IMG/VR virus record: IMGVR_UViG_2663763286_000010
Location: 1 to 24,646 of that record
Length of the DNA stretch: 24,646 nt
Strand: one strand, 5' to 3'
Origin: a virus
Lineage: Duplodnaviria > Heunggongvirae > Uroviricota > Caudoviricetes
Shown: one piece after another, positions 8,402 to 15,446 of the stretch
Numbering within the stretch: the first letter of the stretch is position 1
Layout of the letters: every line of letters begins with the position of its first letter
The notes under the pieces: model-generated
Database searches by the model: none
The model's input: only the letters and a program-made list of their open reading frames with translations
Told to the model about the DNA's origin: nothing
Position numbers and translations under genes: made by a program

Positions 8402-9586
8402 TCAAGCCTTAAGAGGCTTTGTGTATGTTCGAGGAATCCATCCAGTAATAAACTCATCCCCTGATTTAACCTGCACGTAAAGCCATTGACGATCTTTCTT
8501 ATCTAAAATAGCAACAATTGTGTTTTTGCCAATGCATTCAATCACTTCACTATTTAAAGAAGGACTGACATGTAATCTTACGTTATCACCAGTTATAAAC
8601 CTAAAGCCATTGAGATCTTCCCACTTAATTTCTGTATTTTCTTTAATTAATTTTTGTTTTGATATTGGTGCATCCTCATATAGGGATACAGAATATGATT
8701 CTGTCTTGTGTATTTGCGATAAGATTTGTTCTTTTGCATAATCAGCAATAGCGCCAAGCACCACTTCTGTCAAAAGCCACATAATAATAAACTGAAGCGG
8801 GTGAGGGAGCGACTTAAATGAATCAATGAACGTCGAACTGGATTTATTTAATTCTTTGTCTTGAACATCACTTTCGTTGTGAGATGTTTCAATAGCACCT
8901 TCGACATAAGCCTGTGCAATTGATGAAAGACTTTGCTCCATTATTTGATGTAATGAAGCCTTTTGCGCAAGGGTATATTGTTTTAATGATTCTGTTATTT
9001 CATTATTTAAATCTATCTTATGACTTACATTTTGTCGCAATTCATTAAGCATTGCTTGCATGTTATTTAAACCAGCTTGCTTAGTAAGCATCTCGAACTG
9101 GTTTCGTGACGGCATAGCAATTTCTGCCTGTTTCCTTAGCATTTGAATGTATTTATTGGCATCACGCGGGAAAAAAGCCAGAGCCTGTTTCTGTAAAATA
9201 TCAATATGTTTACGATACTCGTTGCCTATTTCTGCCAAATTCGGTCTATGCGAAAACTGTTTTAGAATAGAATCACTAATTAAGGCTTGTGTACTCAACT
9301 TTGCAAGTTGTTCTTGAGCATGGCGCGATATTCTTAACTGTTTTTGCAAGATTGCCATATGTTCTTTATACGATGGAATGATTGCGTTTTTTTGCAGTTC
9401 TGCCAACTGTCTAACCAAATTATTAGAAGCATATTCTGATTTTAATAAATCACTTGCCGATGTATATCCTGGCATTTTGATTTTACTTAAATTATCTCGC
9501 CAAGTAATATTTGAATCTCTATTATAGAGATCGCTTACTGAGCCAAGTGCAAGTTTTTTAATATCCTTCACTTTATTCACCGTCAT
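8402..9586 (-). CDS. Accessory membrane protein: N-terminal coiled-coil region with internal LxKQ repeats, one predicted transmembrane helix, C-terminal SH3b-like domain
   Basis: 394-aa ORF in a markedly AT-rich stretch; repeated motifs (HMAILQKQLRIS, HIDILQKQALAF, YIQMLRKQAEIA, FEMLTKQAGL); hydrophobic segment FIIMWLLTEVVLGAIADYA; C-terminus LNGFRFITGDNVRLHVSPSLNSEVIECIGKNTIVAILDKKDRQWLYVQVKSGDEFITGWIP resembles bacterial SH3 domains. The true start may lie downstream of 9586. Confidence 0.6.
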   Translation of the reverse strand: MTVNKVKDIKKLALGSVSDLYNRDSNITWRDNLSKIKMPGYTSASDLLKSEYASNNLVRQLAELQKNAIIPSYKEHMAILQKQLRISRHAQEQLAKLSTQALISDSILKQFSHRPNLAEIGNEYRKHIDILQKQALAFFPRDANKYIQMLRKQAEIAMPSRNQFEMLTKQAGLNNMQAMLNELRQNVSHKIDLNNEITESLKQYTLAQKASLHQIMEQSLSSIAQAYVEGAIETSHNESDVQDKELNKSSSTFIDSFKSLPHPLQFIIMWLLTEVVLGAIADYAKEQILSQIHKTESYSVSLYEDAPISKQKLIKENTEIKWEDLNGFRFITGDNVRLHVSPSLNSEVIECIGKNTIVAILDKKDRQWLYVQVKSGDEFITGWIPRTYTKPLKA

Positions 9587-13341: not shown

Positions 13342-14187
13342 ATGCTGGCTAAAGTCACTTTCCTGAGCTGTATAACGATGAGCGATTTTACTTTTTCTGG
13401 CTATGAATTGGCCTGCTTTGTAACACACTCCGGTCTATCCCGTAGCGCCGGGCATATCCTGTCGCAATGTGCAAATCTCGCGGCAACAACCAGTGAATAC
13501 TTCATTCACAAGCCTCACCGCCTGATCGCGGCAGAAACTGGTTATAGCCAATCAACCGTCGTTCGTGCATTCCGTGAAGCTGTAAACAAAGGAATTCTGT
13601 CTGTAGAGATTGTTATCGGCGATCACCGTGAACGTCGCGCTAACCTGTACCGGTTTACACCATCATTTTTGGCCTTCGCACAACAAGCCAAAAATGCGCT
13701 GATTGAAAGCAAATTAAAGATCTCTTCAGCGGCAACCAAGGTTAAAGCTGTTCTCGCTAAGACATTGGCTTTATTTAATTTTTTATCCACACCCCCATGT
13801 CAAAATGATACCCCCTCCCCCTGTCAGGATGACGTGGCAATAAAGAATAAGAAGTCACAAGTTAAAAAAACAGAAAGATCAGTTTCCGGCGGTGCCGGAA
13901 CGACCAGGCTCAAAAATTTGACTTCCTGGATCGCTGAGGCAAAAGCAAAGGCTGACAATCTGCGGTTATCCAAAAAACGCGCTCAAAAACATGAGTTCAA
14001 GCAGAAAGTAGAGGCGGCAGCGCGGAAATATGCTTACCTGAAGAACAAGCGTTCTCCTGATATTGGCGGGGTATCAAACTTCGATAATCTGCCGCATTGC
14101 ATGACGGTAAACGAAGCTCTTAATGCGGTTTTAGCCAAAAATAAAGATAACGAACAATGGGGTATACCGGCAGGATTCAGAGGGTGA
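13342..14187 (+). CDS. repL: RepL, lytic replicon initiator (the oriL origin is expected within this gene)
   Basis: 281-aa ORF directly downstream of kilA under the C1 operator; size and position match P1 repL. Confidence 0.75.
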   Translation: MLAKVTFLSCITMSDFTFSGYELACFVTHSGLSRSAGHILSQCANLAATTSEYFIHKPHRLIAAETGYSQSTVVRAFREAVNKGILSVEIVIGDHRERRANLYRFTPSFLAFAQQAKNALIESKLKISSAATKVKAVLAKTLALFNFLSTPPCQNDTPSPCQDDVAIKNKKSQVKKTERSVSGGAGTTRLKNLTSWIAEAKAKADNLRLSKKRAQKHEFKQKVEAAARKYAYLKNKRSPDIGGVSNFDNLPHCMTVNEALNAVLAKNKDNEQWGIPAGFRG

Positions 14188-14237
14188 TAGATTGCTCTAA
14201 TCTGGAGTCACCTGGCGTTTTCAGTTTGAGGTCGGAG

Positions 14238-14483
14238 ATGCAATCTGATTTTTTACAGTTAGCGATCGCTTTTGCAGGATATGTTTGTATTGGCTTCTGT
14301 GTATACATGATCAGCCGAAAAATGCTTGTCGATATCGACCGCAAAGAACAAGCAGAGGAGATCTTAGAATGGATTTTCTTTGGCGCGGTCTGGCCATTAG
14401 GGATCATGTTTGCTGCAACATTTCTTCTGATGTGGATATTCACCCTTCCAGGTGATTTCTATAGAAAAAAAGCCAGACATTGA
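14238..14483 (+). CDS. Small membrane protein with two predicted transmembrane helices (81 aa)
   Basis: The ORF track gives 14157-14483; the likely start is the ATG at 14238, preceded by GAGGTCGGAG. Hydrophobic segments LAIAFAGYVCIGFCVYMI and AVWPLGIMFAATFLLMWIF. Confidence 0.4.
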   Translation: MQSDFLQLAIAFAGYVCIGFCVYMISRKMLVDIDRKEQAEEILEWIFFGAVWPLGIMFAATFLLMWIFTLPGDFYRKKARH

Positions 14484-14569
14484 TACAATCGTTGCGGGTG
14501 CTTGAGGCTATCTGCTTCAGGCATTACCCGAAAAGCAGATAGAAGAAAGCCCCAGATAACATTATGTGT

Positions 14570-14640
14570 CCTGCAAGACGCTTAACATTAATCTGAGGCA
14601 ATATCTATGCTTAGCATACGTAGATTAGCCTCTTACCGAC
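14570..14640 (-). ncRNA. sok: Expected position of a Sok-type antisense RNA covering the mok translation-initiation region (boundaries approximate)
   Basis: Inferred from hok/sok locus architecture; a candidate minus-strand -35 (TTGACC) lies inside early mok. No clean terminator identified. Confidence 0.25.
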
Positions 14641-14813
14641 CAAAAGGTCAAGGAGAAGCAGGCTATGAAGCAGCAAAGAGCGATATTAATCGCTCTGATC
14701 GTCATCTGTTTAACCGTCATTGTGACGGCACTGGTAACGAAGAAAGACCTCTGCGAGGTACGAATCCGAACCGGCCAGACGGAGGTCACTGTCTTCACAG
14801 CCTACGAATCTGA
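14607..14813 (+). CDS. mok: Mok-like overlapping reading frame (modulator of killing) of the hok locus
   Basis: 68-aa ORF in a different frame that starts 58 nt upstream of hok and overlaps nearly all of it, as in hok/mok/sok loci. Confidence 0.6.
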   Translation: MLSIRRLASYRPKGQGEAGYEAAKSDINRSDRHLFNRHCDGTGNEERPLRGTNPNRPDGGHCLHSLRI

Positions 14814-14820
14814 AAGGTAA
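14665..14820 (+). CDS. hok: Hok/Gef-family type I toxin, 51 aa (MKQQRAILIALIVICLTVIVTALVTKKDLCEVRIRTGQTEVTVFTAYESER)
   Basis: Translated by hand (below the ORF-track size cutoff); near-identical in pattern to E. coli Gef/HokC (MKQHKAMIVALIVICITAVVAALVTRKDLCEVHIRTGQTEVAVFTAYESE). RBS AGGAGA 8 nt upstream; 3' hairpin GGCGGGG-AGAGAT-CCCCGCC at 14828-14847. Confidence 0.9.
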   Translation: MKQQRAILIALIVICLTVIVTALVTKKDLCEVRIRTGQTEVTVFTAYESER

Positions 14821-14899
14821 GAGACCTGGCGGGGAGAGATCCCCGCCACTCTTCGTGTGTCAGGTATCCTCAATGTACCCTTTCCTCTCCAAATTAAAA

Positions 14900-14920
14900 A
14901 GCTCCCGAAGGAGCTTTAAA
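14900..14920. terminator. Bidirectional intrinsic terminator between the convergent hok locus and the minus-strand virion operon (GCTCC-CGAA-GGAGC flanked by A-run and T-run)
   Basis: Stem-loop at 14901-14914 with AAATTAAAAA upstream and TTTAAAA downstream. Confidence 0.65.
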
Positions 14921-14936
14921 ATACAAGGGATGACTC

Positions 14937-15446
14937 TTAATCCCACTCAATCCAGTTGTAGACGATACGAAGTGACGGGCGCACAGCGGCAGTCACATCT
15001 TCGGTACTAAAGTCGATTGCATCACTGTAGATTTTGCAGTCCAACATTTCAATTGTTGTAGCAGCTTTTGTCACAGCGTTAACCCCGGAAGATTTGGATT
15101 CAGGGGTAGCAGCCATCGTGATATCAACATAGTCCTTCGCCGCAATGCGATCCTTGATGAACTGAAGAATATCGCCTTCGATAGTCTCCACGCACTGGAC
15201 CTGGATTTCCCCAGAGTTTCGAATTGGTCCGTGCTGGTTGAACTTCACACCATTCGGACCATAGTCCTCCACATCCTCGCGGGTCATTTCAGGGATTTGC
15301 GACGTGCGAACCAGTACGCTGATATCTTCATGGCCTGCAAAAGTGAGCTGGAATTCAGAAGATACCAGTCGTTCGCCTTTGGCCGCGTTGGCAGTATAGC
15401 GGCCCTTAATAAATTTACGGTTTCCCTTAGTGTTATTGTGCCCCAT
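14937..15446 (-). CDS. Virion structural protein (tail/baseplate; position of P1 BplB)
   Basis: 169-aa ORF, last gene of the minus-strand operon running from parS; name by synteny only. Confidence 0.4.
   Translation of the reverse strand: MGHNNTKGNRKFIKGRYTANAAKGERLVSSEFQLTFAGHEDISVLVRTSQIPEMTREDVEDYGPNGVKFNQHGPIRNSGEIQVQCVETIEGDILQFIKDRIAAKDYVDITMAATPESKSSGVNAVTKAATTIEMLDCKIYSDAIDFSTEDVTAAVRPSLRIVYNWIEWD

Follow-up and report, generated by a model that had tools for sequence, protein, structure and literature searches.

The DNA analyzed here (24,646 nt of a viral genome record from IMG/VR, hereafter the window) almost certainly carries a type I toxin-antitoxin cassette of the hok/mok/sok kind. 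Its features are probably best explained as those of a complete cassette of the prophage-type hokW/hokD subgroup, which a P1-like phage-plasmid carries as cargo in its variable region 5 and which would act in post-segregational killing; regulation at this locus would very likely follow the canonical hok/mok/sok scheme. A previous sequence-only reading of the same DNA had proposed a hok/mok/sok-type locus with a Gef-like toxin, and this assignment is upheld by a Pfam family match, a match to the Rfam model RF01794, a covarying long-range RNA fold and 85% DNA identity to the hokW cassette of phage 933W. The locus had been placed at 14500-14860; the location was right, but the extent is wider, starting with the candidate hok promoter (14462-14489) and continuing through fbi (14868-14880), with which the mRNA ends. 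The features of the locus and its surroundings are collected in Table 1.

Table 1. Coordinates of the hok locus, its predicted RNA elements and the neighboring features in the window
Feature	Position	Strand	Description
repL	13342-14187		Flank of the hok locus
Replaced segment ("variable region 5")	14202-14895		694 bp, versus 1827 bp in NC_005856 51586-53412: Orlf(part)-rlfA-rlfB-pmgF
Small predicted membrane protein	14238-14483	+	81 aa; other ORF of the replaced segment; PHROG 3772
Candidate hok promoter	14462-14489	+	TAGAAA, 16-nt spacer, TG-extended TACAAT; predicted start at about 14496
hok cassette	14484-14880		With the 81-aa ORF, fills the replaced segment
Full-length hok mRNA, inferred	14496-14880	+	385 nt
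tac element, mRNA 5' end	14496-14507	+	GGGUGCUUGAGG; pairs with fbi, alternatively with ucb
5' leader hairpin	14508-14542	+	Arms CTATCTGCTT (14508-14517) and AAGCAGATAG (14533-14542); in RF01794 consensus structure
Candidate Sok RNA	14545-14615	-	About 71 nt; single-stranded 5' tail, long hairpin, U-rich tail; positional homologue of sokW
mok frame	14607-14813	+	68 aa; +1 frame relative to hok, ends 7 nt before the hok stop
Candidate Sok promoter	14622-14651	-	TTGACC (14651-14646), 18-nt spacer, TAATCT (14627-14622)
ucb element	14630-14637	+	CUCUUACC; pairs with dcb in the full-length fold
Shine-Dalgarno (SD) sequence of hok, AGGAG	14651-14655	+	
hok toxin gene	14665-14820	+	51 aa; Pfam PF01848, PHROG 251
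Candidate TadA site CUACGAA (contains TACG)	14802-14808	+	Tyr47 codon UAC (14803-14805), to Cys if edited
dcb element	14816-14823	+	GGUAAGAG; overlaps the hok stop codon
Stable 3' hairpin	14827-14848	+	9-bp perfect stem, GC-rich; z = -6.3 versus shuffled controls
fbi (fold-back inhibition) element, mRNA 3' end	14868-14880	+	CCUCAAUGUACCC; pairs with tac
Terminator-like hairpin	14898-14917		Shared with reference P1, downstream of bplB; right boundary, not in the hok cassette
bplB	14937-15446	-	Other flank of the hok locus; bplB-pmgG side

Toxin gene, candidate antisense RNA and predicted fold of the hok mRNA

The 51-aa Hok/Gef toxin that had been translated by hand agrees with the ORF list, which gives the identical peptide, and the family comparison proposed for it came out clearly: the product matched HOK_GEF (PF01848), a Pfam family of small single-pass membrane toxins, at 73 bits where 22 are required (E = 1.4e-20) and over profile positions 2-42 of 42, and the PHROG 251 family, "MokW-like host killing" (E = 9.5e-30). 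The gene had been described as missed by the ORF track, as indeed it was, because a 51-aa frame falls below the usual 60-aa listing threshold. Forty-nine of the 51 residues are the same in WP_001352007.1, a "HokD" protein. The NCBIfam Hok and HokA models matched the product only below their cutoffs (47 versus 73 bits), and therefore no narrower Hok subfamily is claimed; the assignment to a specific NCBIfam subfamily was dropped, "HokD" being in RefSeq a name given by similarity.

The overlapping 68-aa mok-like frame, likewise described beforehand, appears with the same limits in the ORF list, and its product matched PHROG 37205 (E = 1.9e-20). It starts ahead of hok and covers almost the whole gene, and is preceded at 8 nt by an SD sequence, GAGG (14595-14598); we infer that translation of hok would be coupled to that of mok. 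Toward the 3' end of hok, the TACGAA of the candidate TadA site is unchanged in all 11 aligned hok loci. The equivalent Tyr46 is edited to Cys in hokC, hokD and hokE (PMC5630033, PMC12214031), the editing of K-12 hokD reaching only 6% according to the literature, and full toxicity of the window's Hok may depend on host RNA editing of Tyr47 to Cys.

On the opposite strand lies a candidate Sok gene with a promoter, a hairpin and a U-tail, antisense to the mok start. The predicted RNA is complementary to the mok SD sequence and to the mok start codon (14607-14609), and its fold has a free energy of -22.8 kcal/mol (z = -3.2). The candidate promoter was found by a relaxed hexamer search and aligns with the TTGCCT-17-TAACCT of 933W and of chromosomal loci; an alternative reading has a 16-nt spacer and GCTAAT, and a stricter consensus promoter scan did not pick up the Sok promoter.

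The candidate hok promoter agreed with the consensus at 9 of 12 positions, in addition to the TG extension; its -10 hexamer aligns with the TAGAAT of other hok loci, and the transcription start predicted from it coincides with position 1 of the RF01794 model. This model, which contrary to its name covers the hok leader on the sense strand up to the AUG of hok, matched positions 14496-14670 of the plus strand over its entire length (model positions 1-157 of 157), with 115.2 bits, a gathering score of 59 and E = 3.7e-27. Other Rfam candidates, namely a minus-strand "sok" match (21 bits), ceN48 and Acido-1, were rejected for lying far under their gathering scores.

The inferred full-length mRNA folded with a minimum free energy (MFE) of -157.3 kcal/mol (z = -9.6), the centroid being the same as the MFE structure. 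Together with the Pfam and Rfam E-values, this z-score shows that the features do not arise by chance. Both contain a 12-bp helix between tac and fbi, and this fold-back of the 5' end onto the 3' end is the defining hallmark of hok mRNAs. The ucb and dcb elements form a perfect 8-nt inverted repeat. Of the two hairpins pointed out in the sequence-only reading, the 3' one, given as 14828-14847, was recovered as the perfect 9-bp stem of Table 1, and the palindrome at 14508-14542 is present as well (-13.9 kcal/mol, z = -5.7 versus shuffled controls), but it is not upstream of the locus, as it lies within the leader of the hok mRNA (nucleotides +13 to +47). Folding of the mRNA ends, which had been suggested as a check, thus disclosed the tac-fbi pairing, and covariation in related loci bears on the same structure.

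A search of genome contigs with the cassette returned 19 loci, mostly 84-97% identical, and the covariation set drawn up consisted of 11 loci, most of them close relatives: the window, 933W hokW, and loci from E. coli, Shigella, E. albertii, E. ruysiae, Kluyvera, Pantoea and a MAG. One locus (L021) and the 5' end of another (L009) were unaligned at the 5' end, and the former was excluded from the set. On this small and closely related alignment, and with a structure that derives from one of the aligned sequences, 92% of cells were paired, compared to 36-42% in controls with slid partners, and 23 pairs had changes on both sides, compared to 6-7 in the slid controls. The tac-fbi helix (helix 1) was paired in 96.9% of cases across the 11 loci, with one compensatory change, U-A to C-G, in Pantoea; in the leader hairpin (helix 2), four pairs were changed on both sides, whereas the ucb-dcb helix (helix 6) is invariant in the aligned loci and so provides no covariation evidence. 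Position 14880, where the tac-fbi helix has its 3' end, is also the exact point beyond which hokW and the chromosomal hok loci are no longer similar to the window.

Removal of about 30 nt from the 3' end of the mRNA led to a predicted refolding of its 5' end. The tac-ucb pairing, which is reportedly part of the published R1 model, was not the one chosen in the MFE structure of this 3'-truncated RNA. Duplex energies were -20.5 kcal/mol for tac with fbi and -15.9 kcal/mol for tac with ucb, the latter value standing for the existence of the duplex only, given that a single-sequence MFE cannot settle a kinetic refolding pathway.

Place in the phage-plasmid and closest known systems

The window corresponds to a P1-like phage-plasmid, displaying 98-99% identity to phage phi456, a "Punavirus P1" record from infant faeces, and to many IncY plasmids. 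Homology to the reference P1 genome (NC_005856) breaks at 14201/14202 and resumes at 14895/14896, the flanks being 98.4% identical up to 14201 and 98.9% identical from 14896. The comparison with reference P1 that had been called for therefore reveals a replacement of 1827 bp of the reference by the segment 14202-14895; the locus, placed beforehand between repL and the virion operon, lies between repL and bplB, and the view that reference P1 has no hok at this position was correct, this genome carrying Orlf-rlfA-rlfB-pmgF instead. Eight highly variable regions are listed for P1-like phage-plasmids, with rlfA-rlfB-pmgF among them (PMC9603915). The left junction falls inside the C1 operator Orlf, of which the first 11 of 17 nt (ATTGCTCTAAT) are retained, and the hok cassette is found directly downstream of the C1-controlled kilA-repL lytic operon.

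The other ORF of the replaced segment opens mechanically at 14157, inside repL, and the start assigned by PGAP is equivalent to 14238; the 81-aa protein so delimited is the PGAP CDS WP_001369095.1 in plasmid pXJW9B263-2. It matched PHROG 3772, a family of unknown function (E = 1.6e-53), and all homologues found belong to P1-like elements; one of them, from Salmonella phage SJ46, is 44% identical. Hits of the 81/108-aa ORF to B12D, DUF6338 and ElxI1 were rejected as sub-threshold Pfam/NCBIfam noise.

Concerning the relation to phd/doc, to which P1 addiction is attributed, the sequence-only reading had left it between an added and an alternative module. The first of these holds and the second does not: hokD (9297-9452) and phd/doc (62426-63027) are both present on the IncY plasmid pXJW9B263-2, and phd/doc is reported as conserved across P1-like phage-plasmids (PMC9603915), hence hok/sok is an addition to phd/doc. 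phd/doc kills or arrests cells that have been cured and so stabilizes this type of replicon, as hok/sok would do, and the two occur together on P1-like plasmids. They differ in that phd/doc is a type II system, with a protein antitoxin and the Doc toxin, in a distant and conserved position, whereas hok/sok comprises an RNA-controlled membrane toxin of type I in a variable region.

The closest known system is hokW/mokW/sokW of the Stx2 phages 933W and Sakai Sp5, also borne by temperate phages. The DNA identity mentioned above extends over the same 397 bp (14484-14880 in the window) with the same ends, 44 of the 51 residues of the window's Hok are identical in 933W HokW, and sokW is a 71-nt antisense RNA over the mok start, as the candidate Sok here would be. 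In 933W, mokW is in frame with hokW, of which it is an N-terminally extended form, whereas mok in the window is in the +1 frame; a 1-nt insertion near 14650 relative to 933W shifts the mok frame and changes the spacer of the Sok promoter from 17 to 18 nt. Furthermore, the Stx2 cassettes reside in integrated lambdoid prophages and that of the window in a plasmid prophage, for which, unlike 933W and Sp5, segregational loss is a real trigger.

Plasmid R1 has the family's founding member, hok/sok (parB), which resembles the window's locus in its toxin of about 50 aa, the overlapping mok, the Sok RNA over the mok start (a candidate in the window), the tac-fbi and ucb-dcb long-range pairings and the stable 3' hairpin, as well as in its carrier, a low-copy plasmid, where post-segregational killing makes sense. 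The mok gene of R1 is out of frame with hok. At the protein level R1 Hok is distant, being only about 44% identical to HokW and, by extension, to the window's Hok. The toxin of K-12 hokD (relF) is close in sequence and displays the same pattern of a hard-coded Cys and an editable TAC(G) Tyr codon; however, K-12 hokD is reported to have lost canonical components by rearrangement, and the window's locus has all of them, so that "HokD" is a label of similarity rather than of orthology. Chromosomal hok loci found with the cassette as query were 90% identical (up to 90% for a Rac-type copy).

Compared with the common allele of P1 plasmids, the window's copy has six private transitions; for the Kluyvera locus (L005), the left part was misaligned here and was disregarded. 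The changes at 14565 and 14567 retain mRNA pairing as G.U and introduce mismatches in the Sok hairpin, which is weakened to -22.8 from -29.1 kcal/mol; a C-to-T change at 14876, within fbi, converts a tac-fbi G-C pair into G.U; two more alter Hok conservatively (K5R and R26K), and the one at 14895 falls outside the cassette. None of them removes an element, and the copy belongs to the intact class. In about half of the related plasmids, IS186/IS421 interrupts the cassette at 14832-14843, i.e., in the loop and upper stem of the 3' hairpin, a site which is uninterrupted in the window. An IS421-family transposase is found at the split in p1108-IncY, and in pSvP1 the element is IS186B with the direct repeat GGATCTCTCC; the insertion separates fbi from the rest of the hok mRNA. 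According to the literature, hokA, hokC and hokE of K-12 were inactivated by insertion elements, a parallel to the splits in P1-like plasmids.

Proposed mechanism and rival roles

By homology to R1 and hokW/sokW, a stable hok mRNA of 385 nt would be transcribed from its own promoter and kept inert by the tac-fbi pairing; slow trimming at the 3' end would then take off fbi, the leader would refold, and mok would become translatable, along with the hok gene coupled to it. While the element stays in the cell and is transcribed, the short-lived Sok RNA of about 71 nt would pair over the ribosome-binding site and start codon of mok and block translation; were Sok not replenished, Hok would be made and inserted into the inner membrane, leading to cell death. 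On a low-copy plasmid prophage the main consequence would be the killing of plasmid-free cells, beside phd/doc, and the same trigger could fire at prophage induction or at superinfection by another phage. Studies on homologues are in line with this scheme: HokW is toxic and arrests growth, which the 71-nt sokW RNA prevents when its own promoter drives it (PMC8621323), and a recent survey recorded toxicity for 42 of the 45 Hok homologues assayed, HokD included (preprint 10.1101/2025.08.07.668861). In that survey, hok was over-represented in prophages and in large plasmids, and the prophage role is regarded as still to be studied.

Given the low-copy plasmid prophage that carries the cassette, we consider post-segregational killing the likeliest main role, with about even chances of being correct. 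Several observations count against it. The cassette groups by sequence with chromosomal and prophage loci, and not with the IncF plasmid group; in this respect, chromosomal hokA, hokB and hokC do not mediate post-segregational killing, as reported in summary form in 10.1101/2025.08.07.668861. With about half of the natural P1-plasmid copies split by IS186 at the 3' hairpin, an intact hok locus is evidently dispensable. The weaker Sok hairpin of the window, the G.U pair in its tac-fbi helix, the possible need for Tyr47 editing, the absence of tac-ucb pairing from the MFE structure of the 3'-truncated RNA and the sub-cutoff NCBIfam scores would weigh likewise against our best explanation.

Other roles concern the occasion on which Hok would be made. 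In phage lysis, Sok would vanish upon induction of the P1-like prophage and Hok would be made before holin and endolysin, its damage to the membrane advancing lysis and increasing the output of phage; the molecular mechanism is the same as in killing, and only the biologically relevant trigger differs. On Sp5 induction sokW does disappear, HokW builds up in the inner membrane, lysis comes about 40 min earlier and phage release doubles; when hokW-sokW is deleted, growth arrest sets in about 40 min later and only half as much phage is released (PMC8621323). The position of the cassette, directly 3' of the kilA-repL operon and with 11 of 17 nt of Orlf kept at its left junction, also fits. Nonetheless, the hokW effect is modest (2-fold), laboratory P1 and P7, which carry rlfA-rlfB-pmgF, lyse well without the cassette, and about half of the natural copies are IS-split. 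We regard this role as possible but unlikely. A role in abortive infection, in which a superinfecting lytic phage would shut off host transcription and deplete Sok, so that Hok would kill the cell before the invader finishes and spare sister lysogens, appears improbable. The location in a variable cargo region speaks for it, and a weak exclusion of T4 by R1 hok/sok is mentioned, by way of citation, in PMC8621323; yet that effect was weak and required high copy number, and the Hok survey found no enrichment of hok beside defence systems (10.1101/2025.08.07.668861). Moreover, the PADLOC models matched neither Hok nor the 81-aa ORF, and no defence-system assignment follows from them. The roles in killing, lysis and exclusion would share one mechanism and are compatible with each other.

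We strongly doubt that the cassette is an inert passenger, a hitch-hiking relic in decay, as most hok loci of the K-12 chromosome are, that affects neither the host nor the phage-plasmid. The K-12 loci offer precedents, hokA, hokC and hokE having been lost to insertion elements and hokD to rearrangement; the same type of IS186 insertion splits about half of the P1-plasmid copies, and both the Sok hairpin and the tac-fbi helix are weakened by mutations private to the window. Against this, the promoter, tac, fbi, ucb, dcb, mok, the hok ORF and the promoter and hairpin of Sok are all intact in the window, its private substitutions in stems all keep the mRNA pairing as G.U, and K5R and R26K are conservative. 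Repeated inactivation by insertion sequences is in itself a sign of cost, which implies that the intact locus is active. Least credible to us, and decidedly speculative, is a phase-variable killer coupled to induction, in which read-through from the C1 operon would give 5'-extended hok transcripts that escape the tac-fbi pairing and provide a hokW-like boost to lysis, the IS186 hot spot in the 3' hairpin serving as an on/off switch at the population level; such read-through could occur because the cassette lies directly behind the C1-repressed kilA-repL operon, next to the truncated C1 operator. Returning to post-segregational killing, natural P1-like plasmids, which are major carriers of resistance genes, usually hold two types of addiction system, hok/sok and phd/doc, and this bears on their persistence and on attempts at curing. 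The intact and the IS186-interrupted copies amount to a natural experiment on the benefit or cost of the cassette to the element.

Occurrence and earlier records

In PLSDB, the hok cassette was present at a coverage of at least 80% in 449 records, and its 3' junction was matched in 452, whereas the reference rlfA-rlfB-pmgF allele occurred in about 100, the hok allele being thus the commoner by about 4.5 to 1. Reference P1 is therefore unrepresentative at this locus, the laboratory reference being the minority form. A blastn search with the cassette matched only 632 records, nearly all P1-like, and IncF-type hok loci were not found among them.

The hok allele of P1-like plasmids is already known, as a textbook system in an annotated position, and its discovery value is small, hok/sok being among the best-studied toxin-antitoxin families and the allele being annotated in hundreds of records. 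A literature search for an explicit description of hok in P1-like elements retrieved only an indirect mention, "2 orfs including antibacterial toxin". The substitution in a P1-like element had already been remarked in a 2019 paper, Venturini et al. being cited on the allele, and an ETEC paper names only the "P1 addiction system" for a plasmid carrying the hok allele. As for annotation, RefSeq/PGAP entries read "hokD: type I toxin-antitoxin system toxin HokD" in hundreds of plasmids, and the GenBank record MH422554 names the gene MokW.

The mok reading frame and two cassette types

Comparison of the window with the hokW/mokW/sokW cassette of the Stx phage 933W revealed a 1-nt indel at about 14650, where the window reads GGTCAAGG and 933W reads GGCA-AGG; on the aligned sequences, two cassette types are told apart by this indel. 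One type, seen in 933W and in the majority of chromosomal loci, has mok in frame with hok (Mok being a Hok with an N-terminal extension) and a 17-nt spacer in the Sok promoter, whereas in the window, a Kluyvera locus (L005) and a MAG locus (L018), mok occupies the +1 frame and encodes a separate 68-aa product, with a spacer of 18 nt in the candidate Sok promoter. Furthermore, the window's copy differs from the allele common among P1-like plasmids by six private transitions (14565, 14567, 14678, 14741, 14876 and 14895), three of which are C-to-T changes located in RNA stems that keep their pairing as G.U in the hok mRNA. The C-to-T changes at 14565 and 14567 weaken the predicted Sok hairpin by approximately 6 kcal/mol.

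Predicted pairing and editing of the hok mRNA

Perfect complementarity over 8 nt (14512-14519 and 14666-14673; CUGCUUCA / UGAAGCAG) exists between the leader hairpin's 5' arm and the opening codons of hok (AUGAAGCAG), and could provide an alternative pairing in which the hok start is occluded. Near the end of the toxin gene, the mRNA carries a TadA editing motif (see table), with TACGAA unchanged in all 11 aligned hok loci. A-to-I editing at the Tyr47 codon would yield Cys47, the partner of the hard-coded Cys30; equivalent editing to Cys has been reported for hokC/D/E. Because of this motif, the toxicity of the phage-plasmid Hok may hinge on a host tRNA-editing enzyme.

Features of the hok region in the window
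Feature	Position	Strand	Description
81-aa predicted two-helix membrane protein	14238-14483	+	PHROG 3772, function unknown
TadA A-to-I editing motif CUACGAA	14802-14808		In hok mRNA; Tyr47 codon at 14803-14805
IS split point in hok cassette	14832-14843		In the hok 3' hairpin (loop and upper stem)

Interrupted and truncated cassettes in plasmids

The cassette is split within the 3' hairpin in about half of the hok-bearing P1-like plasmids: 225 of 452 records were unbroken over 14780-14900, the remainder being two-piece matches with a 12-nt overlap. In p1108-IncY (L026, NZ_MG825379), the insert at 1334-2446 corresponds to an IS4-like IS421 (IS186B) element, and an IS186B at the same hairpin site, with the direct repeat GGATCTCTCC, was described in pSvP1 (Venturini 2019). 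The fbi element, at the 3' end of the hok mRNA, is separated from it by this insertion; the window's own copy is uninterrupted at the split point. Additionally, PLSDB matches H145-H152 (E. albertii, Klebsiella and E. coli plasmids) covered only cassette positions 1-147 or 58-147, a part that holds the hok promoter and leader but lacks the toxin gene, which suggests that some plasmids have another, truncated allele at the hok locus or close to it.

The membrane-protein ORF and the left junction

The rest of the replaced segment, beside the hok cassette, is occupied by the 81-aa ORF. Homologues of its product were found in P1-like elements only, including a 44% identical version in Salmonella phage SJ46, and in lambdoid phages this ORF does not accompany hok. 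The left recombination junction falls inside the C1 operator Orlf (Op55; window 14191-14207, NC_005856 51575-51591), of which the first 11 nt (ATTGCTCTAAT) are kept in the window and the last 6 are substituted.
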